A stretch of DNA of 64,000 nt from a virus, in IMG/VR virus record IMGVR_UViG_3300037869_000009, positions 10,094-74,093 of that record. One strand, 5' to 3'. The position numbers were made by a program, and so were the translations under genes. Shown here piece by piece: positions 9,747 to 39,020 of the stretch. Below the pieces are notes generated by a model. That model saw only the letters and a list, made by a program, of their open reading frames with translations. It was not told the DNA's origin and ran no database searches. How positions within the stretch are numbered: position 1 is the stretch's first letter; every line of letters begins with the position of its first letter.

Positions 9747-9772
9747 AAGTTGTCGCCCCGGGGCGACAACTT
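9747..9772. repeat. Dispersed palindrome copy 1 (AAGTTGTCGCCCCGGGGCGACAACTT)
   Basis: 26-bp perfect palindrome read directly. Confidence 0.95.
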
Positions 9773-10210: not shown

Positions 10211-11263
10211 TTAGACCGGTAAAACGGTGCTACGGCAATGACCGTGCAAGGGTGGGAAAATGGCTCCGATACCAGCCAACTGTTTGGGACTCTTTCCCTT
10301 GCTGAACTCGCCTACGTCATCGGCTTTGCCGTAACCACTTCGTGTCACAGTTGCGATCCGAACATTCTTTTCACCCTGTTTCACATACAGAATCCGATTC
10401 CCGTTCTGGTCCGTTCCTTCGTTGACCCAAGGACTGGCCTGGGTGATTTCTTCGGGGTCCTTCAGACTCGTGATCTTGTTGATGTGATTCATCGCGGTTT
10501 CAGTTGTAAACACTGTCCCGTGATAGAACCGGCATACATTCGAAGTCACTTCATCCAACACTGCCTGAAACACCCATTCCGTGATCCCGGCATCGTCAAA
10601 GGCCCCGAACTGCGAAAACGTCCGCGCATGGGTACTGAAGCTGTTAGCCACGACTCGCCAATAACTGGGTCCCCTGGACACACTGTTCCCCAGTGACGTC
10701 TGCAGCGACTTTCCGATCTCGATCGGCCCCTGTCCGGTCTGAAGTCCACGTTCCACAATCCCGCGGGCCCTGCCCGAGTGCCAATCGGCCCGGTTCCCAA
10801 GTTCATCGCGAACATAGTTCGTGGTGATTTGCCGAACCAACTTTTCAACCTTTCGATCGCGGGAAGACAGCTCCGCCCCGATCTCCATCTTGAAAGTGCG
10901 CTTCATGCTGGCCCGGGTAGCCTTGGCAAGCTTGGGCCCCTCGGACTCCAAGATGGCTGCGAACTTCGGGGGCACCGTGGCGATCTTCGCCTTCAGGATC
11001 CGGTTTGCTGCTTTCAGAACCTTGTCCACCTGACCATCCGTCATGCGGTCCCAGCTGACGTCAAGAGTATCCAGCGCAGCCTTCACGGCCCTGGCTTCGT
11101 CCCCGGCCACCGCGGCATTGATCCTGCGGGACAAGCGCTCCGTGATGACTACGAAGTCCGCGGCCTTCAAGGGGTCCAGCGCTTTGGTGATGTCTACCCG
11201 TAGCATCTGGGACGCAAGCTGTTCCGCAGCCAGGGCCCCAGACTGGTAGATCGCAACACTCAC
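10211..11263 (-). CDS. Head morphogenesis protein (SPP1 gp7 / MuF-like)
   Basis: FQAVLDEVTSNVCRFYHG and terminal FPPLHGHCRSTVLPV motifs; follows portal. Confidence 0.9.
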   Translation of the reverse strand: MSVAIYQSGALAAEQLASQMLRVDITKALDPLKAADFVVITERLSRRINAAVAGDEARAVKAALDTLDVSWDRMTDGQVDKVLKAANRILKAKIATVPPKFAAILESEGPKLAKATRASMKRTFKMEIGAELSSRDRKVEKLVRQITTNYVRDELGNRADWHSGRARGIVERGLQTGQGPIEIGKSLQTSLGNSVSRGPSYWRVVANSFSTHARTFSQFGAFDDAGITEWVFQAVLDEVTSNVCRFYHGTVFTTETAMNHINKITSLKDPEEITQASPWVNEGTDQNGNRILYVKQGEKNVRIATVTRSGYGKADDVGEFSKGKSPKQLAGIGAIFPPLHGHCRSTVLPV

Positions 11264-13257
11264 GTGGGCTGGACCATGGTGGCGAACACGTCCGCAGGAA
11301 TCTTGATCACTTCCGGTTCATCATCGTTATCATCCACCACAGTCACGGGTGGCTTCGCTGCCAGACGCGCTTCGCGCTCCCGTAGTTCGCAGCGTTTCGC
11401 TGCCACCGATTCTTCGATCTCCACGGCTTCGAGCTGGTCACGCAACTTCATCAACCGTGCTGCGTTCATCTTCAGCCGGCGCTTCGCGGTTGCAACGGCC
11501 CCCAGCGGTTCACCGATGCCTGAAGCTTCACCGGCTGTCGGGATATCGTTGTCATCGGTGACGTCCAACGGGATACCCGCAATCGTCATTGTGATGGGCT
11601 GTTCGGTCCAGTCCGCATCGATGCGGGGAAGCTCTGTGTGAAAGACACGGTCCGCAGCAATCACGCGCCCATCCTTCGGAACCAGGATCCCCACGCTGCT
11701 TAGCTTCGTAAGCGCTTCGGCCATCTCCAAGGGATCTGTGATGCGTGGACCATCGGAAACCAGCTTCCAATATTTGATCCCGAGTGCTGGAAGAATCATG
11801 CGATTCAGCGTGAAATCAGTGCTTAGTCGTTCGGGTCCAAAGACCTGCGTTTCTGCGAACTCCAGTGCGGCCTGTGCACTGGCTCGGTTGAAGTCACGGA
11901 TGTCACCACGAAGCATGCGGGGCAGCCGAAACGACATGCCTACTTTATCGATGTTGCGTTCATCGTAGTTTTGAAACAGCGCGTCTTTCATGTGCGCGTC
12001 TGTCAATGGTTTGATCTCGATCCTACAACGCCCCGAGTTTTCCAAGCCCATCATCGCTTGGATCGGTGGGGAGTCCGCTTCCAGGATCAGGATCTTGTGG
12101 AAGTTGCGCTTCCCCTTGATCTCACCTTCGATGAAGGACCGGATAGTCTTCACGGAATCGGCCTGCAGCCGTCCACCACTGACCGTGATCACCAGCGGTG
12201 GAATGGACTTATTTTCGAAGTAAGTGAAATTCACTTCTTCGGCATGGCGGGAGCCCAGCACTGAAATCAGATTCCCGATCCAACGCGGTACGCCATACGC
12301 GCTAGTCGCGCTGTGGATACGGAAGTGAATCACTTCGTTTGCTGCTACCGCCTTGGGTTCCTTCTTCTGTAGGCCCTTCAAATCGTCATAAGCTAGGCCG
12401 GTGCGTGCGCTGATGACCCTGGGGTCCCCAAACTCTTTGAACCACACAGGCTTCTGACCAGCCACGATCTGGATGAAGCGCCGGAACGTGCGATACACGG
12501 TCTGGGGCATGAATGTGATGGGGCCGCGCTGCACTACCTGCTGAACCGGGATGCGATCCACATCTTGTTCAACAAGGCGCACGGTATGGGCTGCCATCCC
12601 AACGAACTGCTGGGGCTTGCCAGCTGCGTTGCGCACCACCTCCCAGTAGCCGTTCCCGGTTGTCTCCATGTCGGCCCGGGTCCGATGGCGCAGCGTGACA
12701 AAACTGATGTCCGGGCATGCATACTCAAAAAACGATTCGGCCCGCGCGCGTTCGATACGCATGTCCCGCTTCAGCCGTTCGATCTCTGAATCCACTTCGG
12801 CTTCCGTGGGTTCATTGTCCTTGGCTTCGGGATCTCCTTCGCCTGACCGCAACAGCCGATCCAGAAACATTGCATCGCGAACCTTGTCCCGCGCGTCATC
12901 GGCATCCAGGTTGATCGTGGGTTCAAAGTGATGACCAAACCCATCAATGTTCGTGGCGTACGAATCGATATTTTGACGCAAGCTGTTCGAGTGCTCTAGC
13001 AGCTCGTAAAGGGTCTGAGGATCGAACGGCGGGGTCAGGTACCCATCCACCATTGCGAAGCCGGACGCTGCACTGGTGATGATGTTGGCGGGGTCATTGC
13101 TGGCACTGCTGGAAAGCGATGCAGAGTCTTTCCGGACCTGGGACTTACCTACCAGCTCGAAGCGATCGCCACCGCCGATGATGGTTGCTCGCACACGTTC
13201 AGTCAGATCATCGGTGGCATTCATCGCCACCGATGCTGCTTTCTCGCGCGCACCCAT
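11260..13257 (-). CDS. Portal protein (PBSX-like)
   Basis: 665 aa; D.ETTGNGYWEVVRN..GKP, ANEVIHFR, YGVPRWIG, ..F..KSIPPL.I.VSGG, SFRLPRML.G...DFNRASA motifs. Confidence 0.9.
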   Translation of the reverse strand: MGAREKAASVAMNATDDLTERVRATIIGGGDRFELVGKSQVRKDSASLSSSASNDPANIITSAASGFAMVDGYLTPPFDPQTLYELLEHSNSLRQNIDSYATNIDGFGHHFEPTINLDADDARDKVRDAMFLDRLLRSGEGDPEAKDNEPTEAEVDSEIERLKRDMRIERARAESFFEYACPDISFVTLRHRTRADMETTGNGYWEVVRNAAGKPQQFVGMAAHTVRLVEQDVDRIPVQQVVQRGPITFMPQTVYRTFRRFIQIVAGQKPVWFKEFGDPRVISARTGLAYDDLKGLQKKEPKAVAANEVIHFRIHSATSAYGVPRWIGNLISVLGSRHAEEVNFTYFENKSIPPLVITVSGGRLQADSVKTIRSFIEGEIKGKRNFHKILILEADSPPIQAMMGLENSGRCRIEIKPLTDAHMKDALFQNYDERNIDKVGMSFRLPRMLRGDIRDFNRASAQAALEFAETQVFGPERLSTDFTLNRMILPALGIKYWKLVSDGPRITDPLEMAEALTKLSSVGILVPKDGRVIAADRVFHTELPRIDADWTEQPITMTIAGIPLDVTDDNDIPTAGEASGIGEPLGAVATAKRRLKMNAARLMKLRDQLEAVEIEESVAAKRCELREREARLAAKPPVTVVDDNDDEPEVIKIPADVFATMVQPT

Positions 13258-13722: not shown

Positions 13723-14079
13723 TCAGGCACGCTTACTCTTCGTGGCGAGTTGACCCGCTGGGACACGTCCCCGGGGCGCTGGCGCCACTTCTTCATTCCG
13801 TTTACGCCCTTCCACGATCGCTTGACGAAGTGCTGGATCCACTGCGCCGGGAGTACGGCCTTTCATGGCCCGGAATCCTTTGTCCGAGCATGCCGCATCG
13901 ATGCGATCCCGAAGATTCAAGTCAGTGATGTAGCGATGCAAAGAGCTGTAGCCAACATCCAGGTGTTTGGCTGCAGCTTCTTTGTTTCCGCGGTGTTTGA
14001 CGATCGCACCCACGATCAAATCCGCCACGTGCTTGTCGCCCTTCACCAGTCGTAGCGCTTGAATCTTCGATACTGACAT
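13723..14079 (-). CDS. Fis-like HTH DNA-binding protein
   Basis: AIVKHRGNKEAAAKHLDVGYSSLHRYI HTH; GGAGG RBS supports ATG at 14079. Confidence 0.75.
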   Translation of the reverse strand: MSVSKIQALRLVKGDKHVADLIVGAIVKHRGNKEAAAKHLDVGYSSLHRYITDLNLRDRIDAACSDKGFRAMKGRTPGAVDPALRQAIVEGRKRNEEVAPAPRGRVPAGQLATKSKRA

Positions 14080-14100: not shown

Positions 14101-14120
14101 GTATCTCAGAACTGCGATAC
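14101..14120. promoter_or_regulatory. 20-bp operator copy (GTATCTCAGAACTGCGATAC)
   Basis: One mismatch to consensus GTATCYCAG-N4-GRGATAC; between the divergent HTH and sigma4 genes. Confidence 0.7.
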
Positions 14121-14195
14121 CGGATCAAGGCCAATCGATCCGTACGGGAAAACACCAGTATTGAACCGCAAAAAAGGTGGCTATTATGCGGAGTC

Positions 14196-14693
14196 ATGCG
14201 CGTCCCCGCATTCGCCTATCTCGCGTTCTATCGATCCCAGCACCCGACTCCGCGCCGGTCCCACCCGAAGCCAGCTCACAACCCGTGGGATGAACTGGAG
14301 TGGTGGCAGCACCCGGAAGCCATACGCGCCGTCAATGAACACCCCAACGGGATGACACTCGAAGAAATCGGGCGCCACATGGGGATCACTCGGGAACGGG
14401 TCAGGCAAGTGGAAGCCACCGCGCTACGGAAGCTGAAAGAATGCAGCGGGGATGAAGTGATCAACGTGGGCCGCTTCGCGGTTGCGATCCCGGACTGTGA
14501 GCGCTGCGACCAGCCCTACATCCGACGCAATGGACGTGACCGGCGCTGCGACTTATGCGAAGCCAAGCGCCGGAAGAACCGCAGATCCCGGGCCCACATC
14601 AGTCCAGCATTAGGCGTTGCACAGCGGACCGCACTTCATCCGCTGTCATCGTCCAGTGGTCATGTGGAAAGTGGCAGACATAGCGCAGCTTGA
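14196..14693 (+). CDS. Sigma70 region-4-only protein with C-terminal CxxC/CxxC
   Basis: GMTLEEIGRHMGITRERVRQVEATALRKLK = sigma region 4.2 HTH; no region 2. Confidence 0.8.
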   Translation: MRVPAFAYLAFYRSQHPTPRRSHPKPAHNPWDELEWWQHPEAIRAVNEHPNGMTLEEIGRHMGITRERVRQVEATALRKLKECSGDEVINVGRFAVAIPDCERCDQPYIRRNGRDRRCDLCEAKRRKNRRSRAHISPALGVAQRTALHPLSSSSGHVESGRHSAA

Positions 14694-14931
14694 ACGCCTG
14701 GAAGTGCTTCAGTGCCAACACATCGCCCACACAATGGGCAAGAATCGCTACCGCCAGCTGCGCCGGACCACTTCCGGAATACCCCCAGTCCAGACCCGTT
14801 GGCGACTTGCGCAACAGGTCCAGACGGGGGTTCAGGGCTTCTTCGTGAGTCGTGCCGGGCTGTGGCCCGGAGTGCAGGACCACGACACTGCAGCCCGTTA
14901 CGGAACGATGGCCGATGTATTCCACTGACAT
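14599..14931 (-). CDS. DUF6166-like protein
   Basis: SPTGLDWGYSGSGPAQLAVAILA motif (recalled family); ATG at 14931. Confidence 0.7.
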   Translation of the reverse strand: MSVEYIGHRSVTGCSVVVLHSGPQPGTTHEEALNPRLDLLRKSPTGLDWGYSGSGPAQLAVAILAHCVGDVLALKHFQAFKLRYVCHFPHDHWTMTADEVRSAVQRLMLD

Positions 14932-14944
14932 AGGGACCAAACGT

Positions 14945-15154
14945 TTACCGTCTGCAATCCCGCAGTCTATCCGCAATATCGTCCAAGTGCTTCGCCTGTT
15001 CGGCTTCAGCCCCTGCAGACCGTTCCAGGGCCCGCGCAATGCGCTCCATGATGTGGCCCGCATCATCCGCGGCTGCCCTTCCCGTGGGGGCCAGCGCGGC
15101 CCCCAGGCCAAAGGACAGGAACGCAACGAACCCGATTACTGCTGATTGCTTCAT
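14945..15154 (-). CDS. Small signal-peptide/membrane protein with coiled coil
   Basis: MKQSAVIGFVAFLSFGLGAALA hydrophobic N-terminus; promoter immediately upstream. Confidence 0.65.
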   Translation of the reverse strand: MKQSAVIGFVAFLSFGLGAALAPTGRAAADDAGHIMERIARALERSAGAEAEQAKHLDDIADRLRDCRR

Positions 15155-15164
15155 GCTATCGATT

Positions 15165-15184
15165 GTATCCCAGCTGCGGAATAC
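15165..15184 (-). promoter_or_regulatory. Operator copy in promoter ATTGCA-17-TACAAT
   Basis: GTATCCCAGCTGCGGAATAC; -10 lies 7 nt upstream of the ATG at 15154. Confidence 0.75.
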
Positions 15185-15252
15185 TGCAATGCCCCGGATG
15201 AAGTATTTGTTGGCACGATTCTGGGGGCCCGGGCCAGGGGATCCAGGGGGCC

Positions 15253-15267
15253 GATAGCTTAGCTATC
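15253..15267. repeat. GATAGC-TTA-GCTATC inverted motif copy 1
   Basis: Exact 15-mer, intergenic. Confidence 0.85.
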
Positions 15268-15401
15268 TGCGCCGGGGAAACAGACCGCTGAACGTCCCCA
15301 GATAGGGGCGATCACCAAATCGCCCAAAAACGAAGCTAAGTATATGAAATCATTCAGGACACCCCCGATCGCCAGATCGGCGATTCGGGGGATCACTTCG
15401 G

Positions 15402-15626
15402 TCAGACTTCGAAGGTCACCAGACCGGTCCGGTGGCTGACCACCGTGGTGGTCTGGGGCTCTACCCGAAGCTGGGCAGGGTCCAGGACCAGCATGGTCCC
15501 GGAGTCCGCCAAATCGGCGGTAACCACGAAGGCCACCCCGTCCCGGATCTCCCGGACTCGGACTCGAAGTTCCGAGGTACGGAAGCCACGGAGTCCGGAA
15601 GCGATAGCGTAGGTTTTGGTGTTCAT
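15402..15626 (-). CDS. Small early-type hypothetical protein
   Basis: MNTKTYAIASG... 74 aa, AAAGGAA RBS-like sequence upstream. Confidence 0.65.
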   Translation of the reverse strand: MNTKTYAIASGLRGFRTSELRVRVREIRDGVAFVVTADLADSGTMLVLDPAQLRVEPQTTTVVSHRTGLVTFEV

Positions 15627-15652
15627 GGGAGCGGTTCCTTTCGAGTGGTGAG

Positions 15653-15811
15653 TTAGCGTGCGGAGTTGGAAGCAAGCCACTTCACAGCGGCTGCGGGGTT
15701 CCTGCGCTGGCACTTGCTGCAGGGGTACACAACCCGTTCGCTGCAGAGTCCGCCACACAGGGGGCAGTGGCCGGACTTGATCTTGTTGATGGTGGTCTTC
15801 GCGGTGTTCAT
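15653..15811 (-). CDS. Small CxxC/CxxC protein
   Basis: MNTAKTTINKIKSGHCPLCGGLCSERVVYPCSKC...; follows a promoter cassette. Confidence 0.6.
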   Translation of the reverse strand: MNTAKTTINKIKSGHCPLCGGLCSERVVYPCSKCQRRNPAAAVKWLASNSAR

Positions 15812-15830
15812 CTTGCGTTCCCCTTGATTG

Positions 15831-15918
15831 ACTCGACTTCTAAAGAGTATCCCAGATCGGGGATACTGCATAGCCCCCTTCGCAACTATTTTCGAAGTGC
15901 TGGGGAACACTGCGAAAT
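15831..15918. repeat. ~88-bp promoter cassette, copy A (copy B at 16299-16387)
   Basis: Near-identical direct repeat, roughly 9 differences by eye. Confidence 0.9.
15847..15866 (-). promoter_or_regulatory. Operator copy (GTATCCCAGATCGGGGATAC)
   Basis: Consensus match; minus-strand -10 TACTCT. Confidence 0.85.
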
Positions 15919-15920
15919 GG

Positions 15921-16094
15921 TCACTTTTGTGTCCAGGGTTCGCTTCGCAACCGAGCCACGATCCCTTCAGCGGTTGCGCGGTAACAGACGCGAGTCCAGA
16001 ACTCGCCATCGATCCGGACTTCATACGCGGTGCGGTCCAGCACCCCGAACAAACCCCAGTTGTTGGGCACTTCCACGATTGTGATCTCTTTCAT
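15921..16094 (-). CDS. Small hypothetical protein (57 aa), not in the ORF track
   Basis: Manual translation MKEITIVEVPNNWGLFGVLDRTAYEVRIDGEFWTRVCYRATAEGIVARLRSEPWTQK. Confidence 0.55.
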   Translation of the reverse strand: MKEITIVEVPNNWGLFGVLDRTAYEVRIDGEFWTRVCYRATAEGIVARLRSEPWTQK

Positions 16095-16096
16095 GA

Positions 16097-16276
16097 CTAC
16101 TCCAGCACCACCACGTTTACAGGCAATGTGATCTCATTTAGGCGCCACCGGACCCACTGGTCAGGGGCCACTTCCCGGACGGTTCCACCACTTGCAAGTT
16201 CGTAGAACCGGAGTCCGATCCCATACGAGTTGACCACAGTTTCAATCCGCCCGTTTACCTTGATCTGCTTTGGCAT
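16097..16276 (-). CDS. Small hypothetical protein (59 aa), not in the ORF track
   Basis: Manual translation MPKQIKVNGRIETVVNSYGIGLRFYELASGG...VVVLE; GGGAG RBS; follows cassette B. Confidence 0.6.
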   Translation of the reverse strand: MPKQIKVNGRIETVVNSYGIGLRFYELASGGTVREVAPDQWVRWRLNEITLPVNVVVLE

Positions 16277-16298
16277 CTGCTGCGCTCCCGTTTGCTAC

Positions 16299-16387
16299 AC
16301 TCGACTTCTAAAGAGTATCCCAGTTCGGAGATACTGCATAGCCCCCAGCACCAACTATTTTCGAAGTGCTGGGGACCACTGCGGAAT
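16299..16387. repeat. ~88-bp promoter cassette, copy B
   Basis: Direct repeat of 15831-15918. Confidence 0.9.
16315..16334 (-). promoter_or_regulatory. Operator copy (GTATCCCAGTTCGGAGATAC)
   Basis: Consensus match. Confidence 0.85.
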
Positions 16388-16887
16388 CAGCGCAGCGTGA
16401 GCGCACCATATCGCGCCATCCCAGGCTTGCTGGGGTCGAAGATGTTTCCGCGCGCAAAGTTCTTTTCCGGGGCCTTCCAGCTAGCAGGCTTCAAAATGTC
16501 CCCAGTTTCCCGAACAATGAAGACCAGCACGCTTCTGCCAGTGCCGTGGATCGTCGCAATCCGGACGTACTTCGGACCGATCCTGTTGATCTCCACCGTG
16601 GCGTTCGGTCCCACGATCTCCTGCGCACGCTTCAGCCAGGCAGCCAAAGCCGTGTTGAAATCCGGGGCTGCATCCGGTGCGGACTCCGCTTCCGGGGCTT
16701 CTGGGAGCGCCACAGAAGGCGCCACCGCTGCGGACTGGGCAACCGCCGGGGCCGCTTCCAGACGGGCCTGCAGGGCCCTGCAGCGCGCCAGCAGCACGTC
16801 CCCCAGGACAATGTTCCCGGCAACGTAGGCTTTGCTGGCCTGGTCCGCGGTGGTCTGCAGTTCGGTCTGAAGTTCGTTGCGTTCCAT
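16387..16887 (-). CDS. Conserved phage early-type protein (GDILKPASWKAP...RGNI motif)
   Basis: KYVRI...SV..F...TGDILKPASWKAP...RGNIF motif recalled from many phage hypotheticals; ATG at 16887. Confidence 0.75.
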   Translation of the reverse strand: MERNELQTELQTTADQASKAYVAGNIVLGDVLLARCRALQARLEAAPAVAQSAAVAPSVALPEAPEAESAPDAAPDFNTALAAWLKRAQEIVGPNATVEINRIGPKYVRIATIHGTGRSVLVFIVRETGDILKPASWKAPEKNFARGNIFDPSKPGMARYGALTLR

Positions 16888-16921
16888 CTTGCTACCCCGT
16901 GATTGACTCGACTCCCTAATA

Positions 16922-16941
16922 GTATCCCAGATCTGGGATAC
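16922..16941 (-). promoter_or_regulatory. Operator copy in promoter TTGATT-17-TACTAT
   Basis: GTATCCCAGATCTGGGATAC (perfect palindrome) fills the -35/-10 spacer. Confidence 0.9.
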
Positions 16942-16987
16942 AATCAACAGGGTCCCCGATGTTTTTTTTTCGGGGACCCCGGAACGG

Positions 16988-17197
16988 TCACCACAAACCG
17001 ATCGCGAGTCCCGCGATCTTCGTGGCGTAGGTGGTGGGGCAAGCACGCTTGCCCAGACGTTCCATGGTGGAACGAACGTCCGCCATGAAGATGGGAAGGT
17101 TGTGGGCGTTGGTTGCCCACGTCCGGATGGAGTCGGACTCCACCTGGGAAAGGGCCGTGGTGAAGAAGATTTCTGCTTTGGTGCTGCGCTTGGCCAT
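16988..17197 (-). CDS. Small early-type hypothetical protein
   Basis: MAKRSTKAEIFF... 69 aa; followed by GC hairpin at ~16951-16980. Confidence 0.65.
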   Translation of the reverse strand: MAKRSTKAEIFFTTALSQVESDSIRTWATNAHNLPIFMADVRSTMERLGKRACPTTYATKIAGLAIGLW

Positions 17198-17233
17198 CGT
17201 TCGTTCCCCCGTGATTGACTCGACTTCTAAAGA

Positions 17234-17253
17234 GTATACCAGTACCGGGATAC
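17234..17253 (-). promoter_or_regulatory. Operator copy in promoter TTGAAT-17-TACTCT
   Basis: GTATACCAGTACCGGGATAC. Confidence 0.85.
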
Positions 17254-17318
17254 ATTCAAGCGCTCTGGTGACCTGGACTCCAATCTTTTTTTTCTTTTGT
17301 CCTACACGCAAACAGTCA

Positions 17319-17350
17319 TAGACAGTATCCCAGTCATGGGATACAATCAA
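17319..17350. promoter_or_regulatory. Overlapping bidirectional sigma70-like promoters sharing one operator (17325-17344)
   Basis: Plus strand TAGACA-17-TACAAT; minus strand TTGATT-17-TACTGT; operator GTATCCCAGTCATGGGATAC. Confidence 0.8.
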
Positions 17351-17423
17351 TGGAGTAGGGACAGGGAAGCGGGAACCGGAGCCGGACCCAGGGCACCTTG
17401 ACATTTTCTCAAGATGGCCCACA

Positions 17424-17708
17424 ATGGAAGGGAAGTATTTTCGAATGGATGCAGTTCAGGCGTTAGCGGATGCGCGGGGTTACGCGCTGGCTGGCCGTGT
17501 TCGATTCACGAAGCACGGAACCAACGAAATGAAGGCAGCATTCGCGGACGTGGATGACGTGATGAACGCCCTAATCAAGGGAACGCACTGTGGTCCCGGG
17601 GATCGTCCCGGACGCTGGAGAATCACGGGCCCGGACTTGTCCGGTACCCACGACCTGACTGTGGTGGTGGTATTCGAAAACGGTGTTCTTGTAGTCACAG
17701 TGTGGTGA
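17424..17708 (+). CDS. DUF4258-family (RelE-like fold) putative toxin
   Basis: GRVRFTKHGTNEM...DDVMNAL...RWRITGPDLSG..LTVVV pattern; start may be 17445. Confidence 0.75.
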   Translation: MEGKYFRMDAVQALADARGYALAGRVRFTKHGTNEMKAAFADVDDVMNALIKGTHCGPGDRPGRWRITGPDLSGTHDLTVVVVFENGVLVVTVW

Positions 17709-17713
17709 AACAA

Positions 17714-18184
17714 ATGGCAAAAACGAAGACGTGTGGACTGTGCAACACAGGGGTATGGCGACCCGTGGATCTCGACTTCACGCAAGCGATTGCCGGGATT
17801 AGCTTCGCTGCGGTGCTGCCTGCGGAACGGTGTTCGCACTGCGGGGAATCAGCACTTTCTCTACAAGTGATGAAAGCTTGGGAACTGGGGGTGGCGCAGC
17901 AACTGGGGGATCTCGCGATCAGGACCGGGGACGCGTTCCGGTTCATGCGGAAGTCCCTGGGTCTGTCCGGGGTGGCGCTGGCCAACCTGCTAGGGGTGGC
18001 TGCTGAGACTGTTTCGCGCTGGGAAAATGTGGCCCCCGATGCGCATGCGTTCGTGTTGCTGACCACGATGGTGGCCGATCGGATTGCCGGAACTAGTGCC
18101 ACGCGGGACCGCTTGCGGGCCACTGGGGGCACGCGTCCCTTGGAACCGGTTGCGGTTACCCTCCCCCGGCTGAAGGCTTCCTAG
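17714..18184 (+). CDS. MqsA-like antitoxin (Zn finger + XRE HTH)
   Basis: CGLC...CSHCGE N-terminal Zn finger; FRFMRKSLGLSGVALANLLGVAAETVSRWEN HTH; paired with DUF4258 gene. Confidence 0.8.
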   Translation: MAKTKTCGLCNTGVWRPVDLDFTQAIAGISFAAVLPAERCSHCGESALSLQVMKAWELGVAQQLGDLAIRTGDAFRFMRKSLGLSGVALANLLGVAAETVSRWENVAPDAHAFVLLTTMVADRIAGTSATRDRLRATGGTRPLEPVAVTLPRLKAS

Positions 18185-18251
18185 CGCCGCTGGGACCCGG
18201 GAATCGCGTCCCGGGTCTGCAGCCCCTGGGACGCCAGGGCTTCCGAGCCCC

Positions 18252-18266
18252 GATAGCTTAGCTATC
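18252..18266. repeat. GATAGC-TTA-GCTATC inverted motif copy 2
   Basis: Exact 15-mer, intergenic. Confidence 0.85.
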
Positions 18267-18359
18267 TGCCCCCTGGACTCCTGGAACCTGGTGGCACAAA
18301 GGCGTGCCAAATCTTTCTTCGGGACGGTTCACGAAATCTTCGTCTCCCCTGTTGTATTT

Positions 18360-18379
18360 GTATCTCAGTGGCGAGATAC
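18360..18379 (+). promoter_or_regulatory. Operator copy (GTATCTCAGTGGCGAGATAC)
   Basis: Consensus match upstream of 18416 gene. Confidence 0.85.
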
Positions 18380-18415
18380 TAGTATTCAGGCAGTAGGGAC
18401 ACCGGAGAAACGAAG

Positions 18416-18736
18416 ATGACCATCACGAAGACCCACGACCAACGCACCGTATACGCAGCTGAAACTGAACTCCCGGCATGGGCCCGCGGGTGGACCCAAT
18501 GTGACAACACCGGCGCCAGCTACAGCACGTATCTCGCGGAAGCGGACCGCGAACACTCGAAGGCTGACCTGCTGCAGATTGAAGCGGAAGCCAAGGCATT
18601 GCGCACCCGCGCACAGTGCGAAGCTGCACTAGCGGAACTAGGAGTCCGGGCCGGTGGAACGTGCGCATCGATGCGGAATATGTACGTCATCGTGAAGTAT
18701 GCGGACCTGTGGCCCCTTCGACAGGTCAGCAAGTAA
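18416..18736 (+). CDS. Small early-type hypothetical protein
   Basis: 106 aa; GGAGAAACGAAG-ATG leader shared with the 19401 gene. Confidence 0.7.
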   Translation: MTITKTHDQRTVYAAETELPAWARGWTQCDNTGASYSTYLAEADREHSKADLLQIEAEAKALRTRAQCEAALAELGVRAGGTCASMRNMYVIVKYADLWPLRQVSK

Positions 18737-18791
18737 GCCGGATTCCGGGGGTCCCGAACTGGGACCCCTGCATCGTCTCTGCCTACACCGC

Positions 18792-18806
18792 GATAGCTTA
18801 GCTATC
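18792..18806. repeat. GATAGC-TTA-GCTATC inverted motif copy 3
   Basis: Exact 15-mer, intergenic. Confidence 0.85.
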
Positions 18807-18888
18807 TGGCCCATCGATCCGAAGCGCCGGAAGCTCTGGACAATCGTGCCAAATCTATTTTCGAAAATCGTCTTCCGACCCGTTGTTA

Positions 18889-18908
18889 GTATCCCAGTTC
18901 CGGGATAC
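18889..18908 (+). promoter_or_regulatory. Operator copy in promoter TTGTTA-17-TACTCT
   Basis: GTATCCCAGTTCCGGGATAC followed by inverted copy of the conserved leader TCTTTAGAAGTCGGGTC. Confidence 0.9.
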
Positions 18909-18945
18909 TCTTTAGAAGTCGGGTCAGCAACAAAGGTAAACGAAG

Positions 18946-19254
18946 ATGGCAAATCAAATGAGCGGTGTAGTGCAGCTGGGTGGGCATATCGATGTGGGCC
19001 AATGCGAAACACTTGGCAGTGGCCGGGTGGTGTGTGACCTGTGGGCCGATGTGATTCCGCACTGGGGTCTGAAGCCCGTAGCCGGCGCACGGTGGCGTGT
19101 TGCACTCCTGGGAGCGAACAGCGTGGAAGAACTCCGCATCGAAGCCCGCAAGCGCATCGATGAACTTCGCACGGCATGCGCCCACGGTTTGATTGTCAGC
19201 TACCGGGGCCCCGCGGACCGCTATTACAGCCGGTTCTACACCCGCGAAATCTGA
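18946..19254 (+). CDS. Small early-type hypothetical protein
   Basis: 102 aa after promoter cassette; GC hairpin at ~19263-19281 follows. Confidence 0.7.
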   Translation: MANQMSGVVQLGGHIDVGQCETLGSGRVVCDLWADVIPHWGLKPVAGARWRVALLGANSVEELRIEARKRIDELRTACAHGLIVSYRGPADRYYSRFYTREI

Positions 19255-19344
19255 AAACGGATCGGGGGCCCAACGGCCCCCCGTTTGGACGGCTTCCCGA
19301 AGTCTGGAAACTATCTTCGGGAATCGGTCCGAATGCACTGGTTA

Positions 19345-19364
19345 GTATCTCAGTTCCGAGATAC
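19345..19364 (+). promoter_or_regulatory. Operator copy (GTATCTCAGTTCCGAGATAC), -10 TACATT
   Basis: Consensus match upstream of 19401 gene. Confidence 0.85.
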
Positions 19365-19400: not shown

Positions 19401-19622
19401 ATGACCAGCAACGAAATCAAGGCACTTGCGGCGCGAACCTCGGAAACCACGAGCCTTAGCCTGGACCGTCTTCGCAACCTGGTCCGCACGGCCCGCGAAT
19501 GCGTCAAGTCCCACGGTTACAACCGCGAAGAAGCAGCCTACGAAATGGGATGTGTGGCCGGTTTCGAAGACAACAGCCAGTGCTGCAGCGCGGTCCAACG
19601 CCTGATGCTAGCTGCGATGTGA
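19401..19622 (+). CDS. Small early-type hypothetical protein
   Basis: 73 aa with strong RBS. Confidence 0.7.
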   Translation: MTSNEIKALAARTSETTSLSLDRLRNLVRTARECVKSHGYNREEAAYEMGCVAGFEDNSQCCSAVQRLMLAAM

Positions 19623-19677: not shown

Positions 19678-19932
19678 ATGTCCAGCAACGATTGCCCACG
19701 GGGGCGCCAGACGGCCCTAGATGCAGCGGAGTTTGTACGATTCGCCAGCGCCGGGTCCCTGTCCGGAACGCCCACCGTGGCGTACCTGGAAGCCTTGTAT
19801 CGCAAGGTGATCCAGTGGTCAGAGCTGGTGTCTGACCACCTCTTGATCGCACAGCAGCGCGAAGAACGGGAGCGCCACGGCCACAATCCGCCGATCACCC
19901 TCCCGGATTCCATGCGGGAGCCCAAAAGGTGA
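19678..19932 (+). CDS. Hypothetical protein
   Basis: ATG at 19678 with GAAGG RBS. Confidence 0.6.
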   Translation: MSSNDCPRGRQTALDAAEFVRFASAGSLSGTPTVAYLEALYRKVIQWSELVSDHLLIAQQREERERHGHNPPITLPDSMREPKR

Positions 19933-19962: not shown

Positions 19963-20235
19963 ATGAGATACCGGATCACAGCGAAGGTCTGGGCATCGGC
20001 GTTGAATGCCCAGTCTGTGCGAACCTACCCGGTCCCACGTGGCTATGACAGCTGGGAAGCATTTGATGCCGCATGGGCACCGCAGTTTCCCGCTTCAGAG
20101 CTTGGAAACAACAATGAAATCCACGACTTAACAGACGGTCAGGTAATAGACTTGATCATACGCTGGGGACGGGCATCGATCGAAGAAGGTCCAGACGGAA
20201 TCCGTACCCTGTGCTTCGAAAATGACTACGATTGA
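19963..20235 (+). CDS. Hypothetical protein
   Basis: 90-aa ORF, last of the plus-strand cassette block. Confidence 0.65.
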   Translation: MRYRITAKVWASALNAQSVRTYPVPRGYDSWEAFDAAWAPQFPASELGNNNEIHDLTDGQVIDLIIRWGRASIEEGPDGIRTLCFENDYD

Positions 20236-20307: not shown

Positions 20308-20322
20308 AATAGCTAAGCTATC
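20308..20322. repeat. GATAGC-TTA-GCTATC motif copy 4 (inverted, 1 mismatch)
   Basis: AATAGCTAAGCTATC in the convergent intergenic gap. Confidence 0.7.
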
Positions 20323-21684: not shown

Positions 21685-22077
21685 ATGAGCATTGAATCAG
21701 AACGGCTGTTGACTGAAGCCGATATCGCGAAGCTGTGCAGTGTGGGCCGAAGCAAAGCCTACCAGATCATGAAGTCGATTCCGGATCACGTAGTCATCGG
21801 CACGGGTCCACGTCCAATGCTGCGGGTGCCGATGTGGGGTTTTCAACGTTGGACTGAAGCAGGCGGAGACAAGTCAGCATGCGAAAACTACTCAGAGTCA
21901 AAGGCAGCCCATATTGGTATTGCGAAGGACGAAACTGGAACGGAGATCCATACCGCCGCACTACCAAACAAACGGATGAAACCAAGGCCCGCGAAGTTGC
22001 CGAACGAATCGCAGCCGAAGAATCTCTTCCCACGCCTGATTACTACTCGCTCTATGACGCGTGCGCAGCGCTCCTAG
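21685..22077 (+). CDS. Excisionase-like HTH protein
   Basis: LLTEADIAKLCSVGRSKAYQIM...LRVP..GF.RW, directly upstream of and overlapping the integrase. Confidence 0.75.
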   Translation: MSIESERLLTEADIAKLCSVGRSKAYQIMKSIPDHVVIGTGPRPMLRVPMWGFQRWTEAGGDKSACENYSESKAAHIGIAKDETGTEIHTAALPNKRMKPRPAKLPNESQPKNLFPRLITTRSMTRAQRS

Positions 22078-22991
22078 TGGACAAGCAAGAATGTCGCGCA
22101 AGTGCAGCATCGATCCAGATTGTCACTGACAAGCTGACCCGAGTCATGCAGCACTTCGGGCCACAACGTGACACCCAAACACTTACGGACGATGACATCA
22201 AAGAATACATCATTGCCCGTCGTAAACACGTCTACAGGGGAAGGCCCATCAGCGATGCCACGATCCGGAAAGAGATCGGAAGGTTGTTCGAAGCGCTGCG
22301 ATTCGCGAAGCGAAAGAAGAAGTGGGCCGGTGAAATCGAGCAACTGCGAATGCCAAGGATGTTGGCACCGGATCAACCGAAGAAGCGTTATCTTCGCGAA
22401 GCGGAATACATAGCGATTCTTGAGCACATCCCGATCAAGCGCCGGGACTACATCGTGATGTGGTGCCACACCGGGGCGCGTTACAGTGAGCTGTTTCGCA
22501 TCGAAGCACAGCACATCGACGAATCGGATCCCAGCAAACCCCGTGTGTACTTGACCGGACGAAAGGGCCGGGTGGAATACAAAGAACGTTGGGTCCCTTT
22601 GTCCGCTGATGCGCTCGAAATCGTGACTGAACGTGCAAAACGCTTCCCCACAGGCCCACTGTTCCCAGACCTGTGGCACAACACGCACGTTCGGAAAGCG
22701 CTGGCCAAAGCTTGTCAACGCGTTGGTGTTCCGCCCTGTAGTCCCAACGATCTGCGCCGCACGTTCGCAACCTGGTATGGGCGCGTTGGGAAGAAGGAAG
22801 ACTTGAAAGCGATGATGGGCCACAGCCCATCATCGAAGCTGGTGGATCACGTCTATCGCCAGCTCCATGCGGACACCGGTTATGAACAGATTCAAGGGTT
22901 CCCGGCACGGCCCCCAATGGGACCACCGCCCTATCAGTACCGGCGCAGAAATCCGATCAATCCGGGGGACGGCGCTTCATTGGGCGCATGA
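21879..22991 (+). CDS. int: Tyrosine integrase
   Basis: HTGARYSE (R), GRKGR (K), NDLRRTFATW (x-x-x-R), MMGHS (H), HVY (Y); N-terminal arm-binding-like region. Confidence 0.9.
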   Translation: MRKLLRVKGSPYWYCEGRNWNGDPYRRTTKQTDETKAREVAERIAAEESLPTPDYYSLYDACAALLVDKQECRASAASIQIVTDKLTRVMQHFGPQRDTQTLTDDDIKEYIIARRKHVYRGRPISDATIRKEIGRLFEALRFAKRKKKWAGEIEQLRMPRMLAPDQPKKRYLREAEYIAILEHIPIKRRDYIVMWCHTGARYSELFRIEAQHIDESDPSKPRVYLTGRKGRVEYKERWVPLSADALEIVTERAKRFPTGPLFPDLWHNTHVRKALAKACQRVGVPPCSPNDLRRTFATWYGRVGKKEDLKAMMGHSPSSKLVDHVYRQLHADTGYEQIQGFPARPPMGPPPYQYRRRNPINPGDGASLGA

Positions 22992-23168: not shown

Positions 23169-23405
23169 TCATCCGCGTTCCACCTGATAAAGGGACCTGC
23201 AATCCGGGCACGTGTTTTCCCGCAGGTAGGTGGCTGACATGGGCGCTAGCAAGTCCCAGCCGCGCCGTGGTTTGACCCGTTTACAAAGCGATGCGGTATC
23301 GATGCCACCACCAGGTTTGTGGCCTTCCGCGGTCAGCTTGCGAATATGCCACTTGCCACTGGGTGGCTGGGCTTCACAGAAGCTGAACTCAATGGTGGGG
23401 GTCAT
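23169..23405 (-). CDS. Hypothetical Cys/His protein
   Basis: 78 aa, WH...SLC...CPDC. Confidence 0.65.
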   Translation of the reverse strand: MTPTIEFSFCEAQPPSGKWHIRKLTAEGHKPGGGIDTASLCKRVKPRRGWDLLAPMSATYLRENTCPDCRSLYQVERG

Positions 23406-23794
23406 CGTTTGCGCAGAGGGTGTAACTCCACGTAATAGTCCTGTTGCGTGAGTTCAGCAACGTATTGGCGAACCGCTGCAGCCAGCAACACGTCCGGTTT
23501 GTAACCCAAGCATTCGGACCACTTCACAGCCCTTTCAAGAGTCAACTTCTGTTGCCCCGATTCGATCACGTGATAGTTCGATGCATGATGCACACCTAGC
23601 AGTGACGCAAACCGCTTCTTCTTCAATCCACTTTTGCGGCGCAACGCTCGCAACATCGACGGTACGGGCAACTTCGGATCAACGGGCGGATGTGTTCGTG
23701 GCGGTGTCCGAGGCTGAAGCGTGATGCACGGATGTTCCACAGAACCCGGGCTGGGATCTTTCAAAACGCGTTCTTCAATGGGGCCGCGCATCAT
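23402..23794 (-). CDS. XRE-family HTH regulator
   Basis: LRALRRKSGLKKKRFASLLGV...YHVIESGQQKLTLERAVKWSECLG. Confidence 0.75.
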   Translation of the reverse strand: MMRGPIEERVLKDPSPGSVEHPCITLQPRTPPRTHPPVDPKLPVPSMLRALRRKSGLKKKRFASLLGVHHASNYHVIESGQQKLTLERAVKWSECLGYKPDVLLAAAVRQYVAELTQQDYYVELHPLRKR

Positions 23795-28424: not shown

Positions 28425-28444
28425 TTGTCGCCCCGGGGCGACAA
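28425..28444. repeat. Dispersed palindrome copy 3 (TTGTCGCCCCGGGGCGACAA)
   Basis: 20-bp perfect core, intergenic. Confidence 0.95.
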
Positions 28445-38996: not shown

Positions 38997-39020
38997 AGTT
39001 GTCGCCCCGGGGCGACAACT
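38997..39020. repeat. Dispersed palindrome copy 6
   Basis: 24-bp perfect palindrome 2 nt after a stop codon. Confidence 0.95.

Follow-up and report, generated by a model that had tools for sequence, protein, structure and literature searches.

What controls a cluster of small, mostly uncharacterised genes that share one 20-bp palindrome in front of nearly every transcription unit? The question is raised by a 64,000-nt stretch of DNA (hereafter, the window) that corresponds to bases 10094-74093 of IMGVR_UViG_3300037869_000009, a linear virus record of 107,034 bp in IMG/VR with an estimated completeness of 98%. The record represents an uncultured soil phage with 58% GC, which we denote G0. Its accessory island contains ten copies of the palindrome GTATCYCAG-N4-GRGATAC, all confined to 5.3 kb. 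Taken as a whole, our reading is that the ten copies are operators lying in the cores of ten promoters and recognized by a single repressor, most likely the Fis/NtrC-type helix-turn-helix (HTH) protein encoded at 13723-14079; we assign to it a probability of roughly 55%.

The palindrome and the promoters that contain it

The original prediction listed ten copies of the palindrome in the window, and all of them were recovered, seven as exact matches (15847, 16315, 16922, 17325, 18360, 18889, and 19345) and three with one mismatch (14101, 15165, and 17234). Dinucleotide-preserving shuffles yielded 0.00 exact matches, and when up to three mismatches were allowed, 21 strand-hits were observed, compared to 0.92 in such shuffles. 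Across the whole 107,034-bp record, no other sequence comes within one mismatch of the motif at its 14 specified positions, and a pattern scan of IMG/VR produced single chance-like hits only, with no other multi-copy genome.

In the orientation of the gene that it precedes, each site shows the same order of elements: a variable -35-like box, the 20-bp dyad, and a -10-like hexamer formed in part by the end of the dyad, in one of two registers, GATACT at positions 16-21 or TACNNT at positions 18-23. The asymmetric flanks, that is, the -35-like box upstream and the -10 box with the leader downstream, always face the downstream gene. TTG-type -35 boxes are present at approximately six of the ten window sites, and no recognisable -35 box was seen in the relatives. 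The start codon is located 34-38 nt past the dyad in seven of the ten window cassettes. In five cassettes the repeat exceeds the 20 bp of the dyad, as they share the -10 box and an approximately 25-nt leader that includes TAGAAGTCGAGTCA. Judging from these features the ten sites are promoter-like, in agreement with the earlier proposal that a single dyad-symmetric site, common to a bank of promoters, is embedded in the promoter core and supplies both the spacer and part of the -10 box.

The island genes are transcribed from the minus strand to the left of approximately 17.3 kb and from the plus strand to the right of it. As initially suggested, each site is upstream of small open reading frames (ORFs) pointing away from this position; the predicted units, however, contain one to three ORFs rather than one or two. 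Operator 1 (14101..14120, minus strand, one mismatch) occupies the 116-bp gap between the divergent genes of the Fis-type HTH protein and a sigma-region-4-like protein, and reads on the minus strand TTGATC-17-GATACT, with GGAGG and the ATG of the HTH gene 20 nt further on. Operator 2 (15165..15184, minus strand, one mismatch) serves a 69-aa signal-peptide-like ORF, whose ATG follows the -10 box TACAAT after 7 nt, with no Shine-Dalgarno sequence; by this layout, the unit is predicted to be leaderless. Operator 3 (15847..15866, minus strand), with the -10 box TACTCT/GATACT, the leader TTAGAAGTCGAGTCA, and the ATG 35 nt past the site, serves a 52-aa zinc-ribbon ORF and a 74-aa ORF. The cassette of operator 4 (16315..16334, minus strand), which serves 59-aa and 57-aa ORFs, is a near-duplicate of cassette 3, with 91% identity over 55 nt and 94% over a 36-nt hairpin-bearing upstream stretch. 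Operator 5 (16922..16941, minus strand) is a perfect palindrome within TTGATT-17-TACTAT directed toward the DUF7717 gene, and it also has a hairpin upstream, at approximately 16950-16985, as do operators 3 and 4. Operator 6 (17234..17253, minus strand, one mismatch) lies within TTGAAT-17-TACTCT, toward a 69-aa ORF (16988-17197).

Operator 7 (17325..17344, plus strand) is situated at the divergence point, with the rightward promoter-like sequence TAGACA-17-TACAAT directed toward a DUF4258-like/MqsA-like gene pair and the leftward reading TTGATT-17-TACTGT. The remaining plus-strand sites are operator 8 (18360..18379; TTGTAT-17-GATACT toward a 106-aa ORF, 18416-18736), operator 9 (18889..18908; TTGTTA-17-TACTCT and the conserved leader, toward a 102-aa ORF, 18946-19254), and operator 10 (19345..19364; TGGTTA-17-TACATT toward the ORFs 19401-19622, 19678-19932, and 19963-20235). 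The four promoter sequences spelled out in the original prediction, those of operators 5, 6, 7 (rightward), and 9, read as quoted on the strand of the downstream gene. The inner CAG (positions 7-9) of the motif is on the plus strand whatever the gene direction in all eight informative sites; as the sites form two paralogous groups, the asymmetry is not significant and may be due to chance.

Conservation of the site was analyzed using 26 sites from seven phages (G0, G1, L121, L177, L178, L179, and L180; 58-67% GC), oriented by gene direction. The syntenic genome G1 (64.8 kb, portal protein 55-60% identical) has three sites, namely, GTATCCGAACGTTGGGATAC, GTATCCGAACATTGGGATAC, and a degenerate copy upstream of the orthologue of the 13723-14079 gene, which is divergent from the sigma-region-4-like gene, as in the window. 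The Logan contig L121 encodes an orthologue with 66-68% identity, whose ATG is preceded at 21 nt by GTATCTCAGCACTGCAATAC, the same distance as in the window. The contigs L177, L178, L179, and L180, reached via the sigma-region-4-like protein, all contain the divergent gene pair with a site in the gap, and further full dyads precede island genes in L177, L178, and L179. In the nearest relative, with contigs from run ERR12037361, the HTH protein is 79% and the MqsA-like protein 73% identical. Neither the full site nor even its proximal half GRGATACT was found in three further relatives, G2, L181, and L182 (12-20 kb inspected for the last two).

Alignment of the 26 sites shows that both arms of the dyad are conserved around a free centre (positions 9-12), as would be expected for the operator of a dimeric protein. 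In the gene-proximal arm, A17, T18, A19, and C20 are invariant, G14 and G16 are retained in 24 sites each, and T21 in 23, the three sites without the following T reading TACAAT or TACATT. The A at -11 and the T at -7 of a sigma-70 -10 box are thus in place before the gene, and the proximal arm is seemingly under a double constraint, as the -10 box and as a half-site. In the distal arm, T4 is invariant, C5 is present in 25 of 26 sites, G1 in 23, T2 in 22, and A3 in 20. Conservation of this arm has no promoter explanation and therefore points to a symmetric dimer. We consider it quite probable that the ten palindromes are the site of a dimeric regulator overlapping the -10 box.

In five cassettes of three relatives (L177:4737, three in L178, and L179:14396) the ATG is located exactly 7 nt past the dyad; they have no Shine-Dalgarno sequence and are preceded by a GC hairpin with a T-run. 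A hairpin followed by TTTT precedes four L178 sites. The 7-nt spacing and the missing Shine-Dalgarno sequence imply that transcripts of these five cassettes are leaderless, in which case they would start at the ATG and GATACT would occupy positions -12 to -7. Among the observations made, this layout is the best argument, if an indirect one, for promoter function. The gene content between the sites is wholly different among the relatives, none of it being shared with the window phage, and the cassette boundary is kept. Since six related contigs (G1, L121, and L177-L180) share the dyad, the predicted control module is lineage-wide.

The candidate regulator and competing explanations

Three proteins of the window phage had been named as possible regulators, a Fis-like, an MqsA-like, and an XRE protein. 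Only the first one was retained: its gene has the site in its own upstream gap in all seven site-bearing phages, the copy in the window lying at its own promoter, whereas the MqsA-like and XRE proteins do not track the site. In the site-free relatives, no copy of the gene was found in the 12-20 kb fetched for L181 and L182, and the copy in G2 is divergent and located inside an operon. The 118-aa product of the 13723-14079 gene (minus strand) consists of an N-terminal Fis/NtrC-type HTH domain (HTH_8 in Pfam) followed by a basic GRxxG/PRGR tail. The HTH_8 profile matches nine of nine orthologues, with the best expectation value (E) of 2.6e-7. An AlphaFold model based on nine sequences has a predicted local distance difference test score above 90 for most of residues 11-67, and its top five matches among 48,161 chains are the DNA-binding domains of NtrC1, NtrC4 (solved on DNA), NtrX, Fis, and a sigma-54 activator, with middling Z scores of 6.9-5.8 and root-mean-square deviations of 1.7-2.6 over 46-51 aligned residues; the matches to NtrC1, NtrC4, NtrX, and Fis domains span Z 6.9-5.5. 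The DNA-binding domains of NtrC and Fis bind dyad sites as dimers. Foldseek with a first, shallow model gave no significant match (KorA entries, with E of 0.3-0.6, carry no weight), and a homodimer prediction for residues 1-75 scored 0.00, which provides no verdict and is evidence neither way.

The tail, residues 68-112, contains a conserved GFRxRxGRxRG stretch and, in the window protein, a PRGRVPA segment. A profile of four sequences matches the Lsr2 DNA-binding domain weakly (E 0.001-0.003), and the tail could act as a minor-groove arm. The distal arm of the site at the promoter of the HTH_8 gene itself is weaker in G1 and L177-L180. Searches of viral contigs with the MqsA-like, sigma-region-4-like, and Fis-like proteins returned only G1 or irrelevant HTH fragments, and a scan of JGI metagenomes with the Fis-like alignment confirmed nothing. 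On this evidence, the HTH_8 protein is most likely the one to which the choice of regulator narrows, and we give about even odds to it being the cognate regulator.

In our reading, the ten palindromes would be operators in the cores of ten promoters, each heading a short transcription unit. The gene-proximal arm GRGATAC with the following T would double as the -10 box (GATACT at -12 to -7, or TACNNT), and the distal arm would be placed one and a half turns upstream, within the spacer. A dimer occupying the two arms would extend from -27 to -8, keeping RNA polymerase off the -10 box and blocking the open complex, so that a single protein would shut all ten promoters together, and the site in the promoter of the HTH_8 gene would provide negative autoregulation. 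Upon entry into the cell, when no repressor is present, the island would fire, and it would then be damped as the repressor builds up, resulting in a burst followed by shut-off. Damping would also limit leftward read-through into the portal and head genes. The sites, their locations, the way they are conserved, and their co-occurrence with the HTH gene are observed; promoter activity, repression rather than activation, identity of the binding protein, and timing are what we infer from the sequences.

Several observations weigh against it. The HTH_8 score of the window protein is 21.1 bits, just under the Pfam cut-off of 22. Co-occurrence of the site and the HTH gene is confounded by relatedness, as the seven positives possibly form one clade. 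The Fis-type proteins differ in their recognition helices (YSSLHRYI, RSAFFRLV, KTTMYRII, and others), in contrast to an outer half-site that does not change. As several of the window cassettes arose by recent duplication (91% identity over 55 nt), the copies do not represent ten separate events. In a strict sigma-70 consensus scan (threshold, 9 or more matches out of 12), the 17325 promoter (plus strand) is the single one of the ten operator promoters to pass, there is no excess of promoter-like hits over shuffles in the operator region, and an operator-free promoter at 17398-17425 passes as well. The description of these promoters as strong in the original prediction finds no support, given the scan result and the -35 boxes, weak in the window and absent in the relatives. 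The sequencing runs holding this DNA comprise the source DNA run only and no RNA run.

The shared stretches of up to 55-110 nt, which extend beyond the 20-bp dyad, suggest an explanation that needs no binding protein: the palindrome would be a part of a promoter/terminator cassette similar to the PeSL elements, spread by duplication and recombination, and its symmetry would be incidental, or reflect a DNA or RNA hairpin or two back-to-back -10-like hexamers. In line with this, cassette boundaries are kept while gene content between the sites differs among the relatives, and the arms, when single-stranded, are able to fold into a hairpin with 7-8 bp (-4 to -8 kcal/mol). These hairpins are weak, however, and changes in the arms are mostly not compensatory, the sites at 14101, 15165, 16315, and 17234 each breaking a pair; moreover, the relatives already have a separate GC-rich hairpin with a T-run upstream of the site. 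The distal arm is conserved in seven phages with 58-67% GC, whereas the flanks and the centre diverge. A role in shuffling is compatible with operator function and does not count against it, and we find it unlikely that the palindrome is not an operator.

Among other proteins that could read the dyad, the MqsA-like antitoxin (17714-18184) might autoregulate at operator 7 and control an extended regulon through the remaining nine sites. A member of the YgiT/MqsA family, it appears to be transcribed from the operator promoter with the best consensus; MqsA is known to repress its own and other promoters through palindromes, and the XRE-type HipB reads an identical TATCC-N8-GGATA core (PMC3920265). 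Yet no MqsA-like homologue was found in the complete portal-to-integrase interval of G1 and L177 or in the fetched parts of L178, L179, and L180, all of which keep the operator. Besides operator 7, the DUF4258-like/MqsA-like pair has its own promoter-like sequence TTGACA-16-CACAAT, the -35 box of which is inside a separate dyad, CTTGA-N7-TCAAG (17397-17413), that may be the autoregulatory site of the pair; no related dyad was found upstream of two distant MqsA-like homologues. We regard this protein as an improbable repressor of the island, and just as improbable is a host-encoded global repressor, LexA-like or similar, borrowed by the phage. GIL01 and CTXphi do borrow the LexA of their hosts, the outer half-site is invariant though the recognition helices of the phage candidates differ, and neither an S24-type nor a CI-type repressor is encoded in the G0 genome. 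On the other hand, in five Myxococcota or Phycisphaerae genomes with portal-related prophages, which are perhaps not the true hosts, the motif has 0-2 hits compared to 2-3 for a reversed-pattern control, the sites vanish in relatives lacking the Fis-type gene, and to our knowledge the motif matches no known LexA box.

The XRE protein (23402-23794) adjoins the integrase gene, a typical position of an immunity repressor, and could be a prophage repressor silencing the island in lysogens; a weak orthologue resides beside the integrase in G1, and the site-free G2 has neither an integrase nor an XRE hit. Nevertheless, operators are missing both from the 4 kb around the XRE gene and from the divergent region at 28-30 kb, the recognition helices of the G0 (HHASNYH) and G1 (SAAHLSD) proteins differ although the half-site is the same, and L182 has several XRE genes and no sites, which makes such a role quite improbable. 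Finally, the bound protein could be an activator, that is, RNA polymerase would be recruited by a phage factor sitting on the dyad, perhaps with the help of the sigma-region-4-like protein. The -35 boxes, weak in the window and unrecognisable in the relatives, fit this possibility and weigh against repression, and each of the ten contigs examined has a neighbouring gene for a mimic of sigma region 4.2. This set includes the site-free G2, L181, and L182, however, so the sigma-region-4-like gene persists where the sites are absent and is not tied to the operator. A protein bound from -27 to -8, over the -10 box, would occlude sigma region 2, and the spacer is 17 bp, as opposed to 19-20 bp for MerR-type activators. 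Activation therefore appears very improbable, and repression by the Fis/NtrC-type protein at the ten core-promoter operators is the reading that we retain.

The accessory island and its neighbourhood

The island, located between the portal gene (11260-13257, minus strand) on its left border and the tyrosine integrase gene (21879-22991, plus strand) on its right border, is about 6 kb in length and contains approximately 16 small ORFs, the majority of which belong to no family. Beyond the HTH_8 gene, family matches were obtained for the 165-aa protein with sigma-70 region 4.2 (Sigma70_r4) and a CxxC...CxxC ribbon (14196-14693, plus strand), DUF6166 (14599-14931), DUF7717 (16387-16890, served by operator 5), and the two ORFs of the pair downstream of operator 7, a weak match to DUF4258 (17424-17708, plus strand) and the YgiT/MqsA-family zinc-ribbon/XRE ORF (17714-18184, plus strand). 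The latter ORF and the XRE gene 23402-23794 provide the only two XRE-type HTH matches reaching E 1e-4 in the G0 genome, a third, faint match (E 0.008) being inside the sigma-region-4-like gene. The recognition helix of the sigma-region-4-like protein, TRERVRQ, is conserved among the relatives, and its gene, which adjoins the portal module in all ten contigs, is preceded by a promoter-like element TTGAAC-15-TATTAT ending 8 nt before the ATG; the protein may mimic or compete with region 4 of the host sigma factor. A literature search for DUF6166 and DUF7717 found no papers, and a near-identity DNA search of 50,697 records of cultured phages gave no match.

At the positions equivalent to the island, beside the small portal-adjacent gene, L182 encodes an AcrVA2-like protein (L182:7467-8513), and L178 and L180 encode N6/N4 DNA methyltransferases (L178:4638-6416 and L180:4080-5375), which hints at an anti-defence hot-spot. 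No other hints were obtained for the early, host-takeover or anti-defence role put forward in the original prediction. A portal-based genome scan identified 50 loci, mainly in metagenome-assembled genomes of Myxococcota, and the island, the HTH gene, and the site are present in none of them. The portal relatives (L122-L171, 45-52% identity) come mostly from assembled genomes of Polyangia, Kofleriaceae, and other Myxococcota, which suggests Myxococcota as the host group. Since the GC content of these genomes, about 67-69%, is well above the 58% of the window phage, its host may be a lower-GC relative of these bacteria or something else.

Two other palindromes were observed. GATAGCT(T/A)AGCTATC has four copies (15253-15267, 18252-18266, 18792-18806, and 20308-20322), all in the island and nowhere else in the genome, each 55-135 nt past a stop codon and three of them approximately 70-95 nt upstream of an operator promoter; its GATA and TATC tetramers are in the order opposite to that in the operator. 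It could be the site of a second regulator or a boundary of transcription units. A GC-rich perfect palindrome with the core TTGTCGCCCCGGGGCGACAA has 12 copies throughout the G0 genome (for instance, 9747-9772, 28425-28444, and 38997-39020), and the relatives have versions of their own at the ends of genes, AGTCTCCCCGGGGAGACT in G1 and GTGTCTCC..GGAGACAC in G2, L178, and L179, the latter version being a single base per arm away from the island operator (GTGTCTC versus GTATCTC). The repeat CCGTCG-N7-CGACGG, with five copies in G2, was considered as an analogous operator and rejected, as it is a coding tandem repeat.

Because every transcription unit of this hypervariable island bears the dyad, the site offers, in an uncultured phage lineage, a search handle for co-regulated accessory genes without homologues, possibly involved in anti-defence. 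The 118-aa protein and the 20-mer form a simple pair for testing and, if the prediction is true, could demonstrate that a Fis/NtrC-type domain is able to function on its own as a repressor in a phage.

Comparison with known regulatory systems

According to the titles and abstracts of the cited reports, anti-CRISPR promoters are repressed via inverted repeats by the small phage HTH proteins Aca1, Aca2, and Aca10 (PMC6765145, PMC8633003, PMC9410906), and this damping results in a burst followed by shut-off (PMC6765145, PMC9410906). As far as these sources describe the Aca systems, the likeness consists in a small phage HTH protein, inverted repeats in the promoters of accessory or anti-defence genes, autoregulation, and an island by the head genes. 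In contrast to one operon with one site there, ten promoters here have one common site, and the candidate regulator is of the Fis/NtrC type, which is not among the Aca families in the cited titles and abstracts. Further, the 13723-14079 gene is the first in its own unit rather than downstream of an acr gene; indeed, no acr gene was recognized in the window, the only candidate being the AcrVA2-like gene at the syntenic spot of L182. Somewhat speculatively, the stand-alone Fis/NtrC domain with its AT-hook-like tail might represent an unrecognised, Aca-like family of 'island repressors', the operator of which is fused to a -10 box and, in the relatives, to a predicted leaderless start codon. The resulting portable terminator-operator-promoter-ATG cassette would serve for co-regulation as well as for shuffling of anti-defence genes in a clade of approximately 100-kb soil phages, probably of Myxococcota; we put this forward as a tentative idea that is rather doubtful as a whole.

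The PeSL elements of T4-type phages are promoter-terminator stem-loop cassettes, and the portions of the reports cited here mention no repressor site (PMC2839356, PMC4122927). To the extent that these elements are described there, the similarity lies in short cassettes of a hairpin and a promoter between small, mostly unknown ORFs of a hypervariable region, and the same order, a stem-loop followed by a promoter between small ORFs of the variable region, is observed at 15847, 16315, and 16922 and at four L178 sites. The difference is that here the dyad, a putative operator, is the best-conserved part, and in the relatives the cassette is fused to a predicted leaderless start.

Control of many sites by one repressor is exemplified by C1 of phage P1, gp71 of phage L5 with its operators and stoperators, the conserved inverted repeats of phiC31, and KorA of plasmid RK2, the sites of which are over the -10 box; in these regulons the copies of the site are dispersed, and several overlap promoter cores. 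The sites of P1 and L5 are asymmetric and distributed genome-wide, and the stoperators of L5 reside inside transcribed regions. The sites described here, in contrast, are symmetric, belong to one 5.3-kb island, and are always in the promoter core; asymmetric, oriented sites within transcribed regions, as in L5, were not what we found. KorA itself appeared only as an insignificant fold match to the HTH_8 model.

The HipB operator of E. coli hipBA, TATCC-N8-GGATA, is bound by a dimeric HTH repressor and overlaps the promoter (PMC3920265). The C-variant of the phage sites shares with it the core half-sites and their spacing (positions 2-6 and 15-19), indicating that this geometry is workable for a dimeric HTH protein. 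No homologue of HipA or HipB was found in the phage, the two XRE-type proteins matching HipB-like chains at E 0.27 or not at all, and membership in this system was rejected, the resemblance being that of the DNA site only. The kind of gene control proposed here is already known in phages, and the island is a further example of it.

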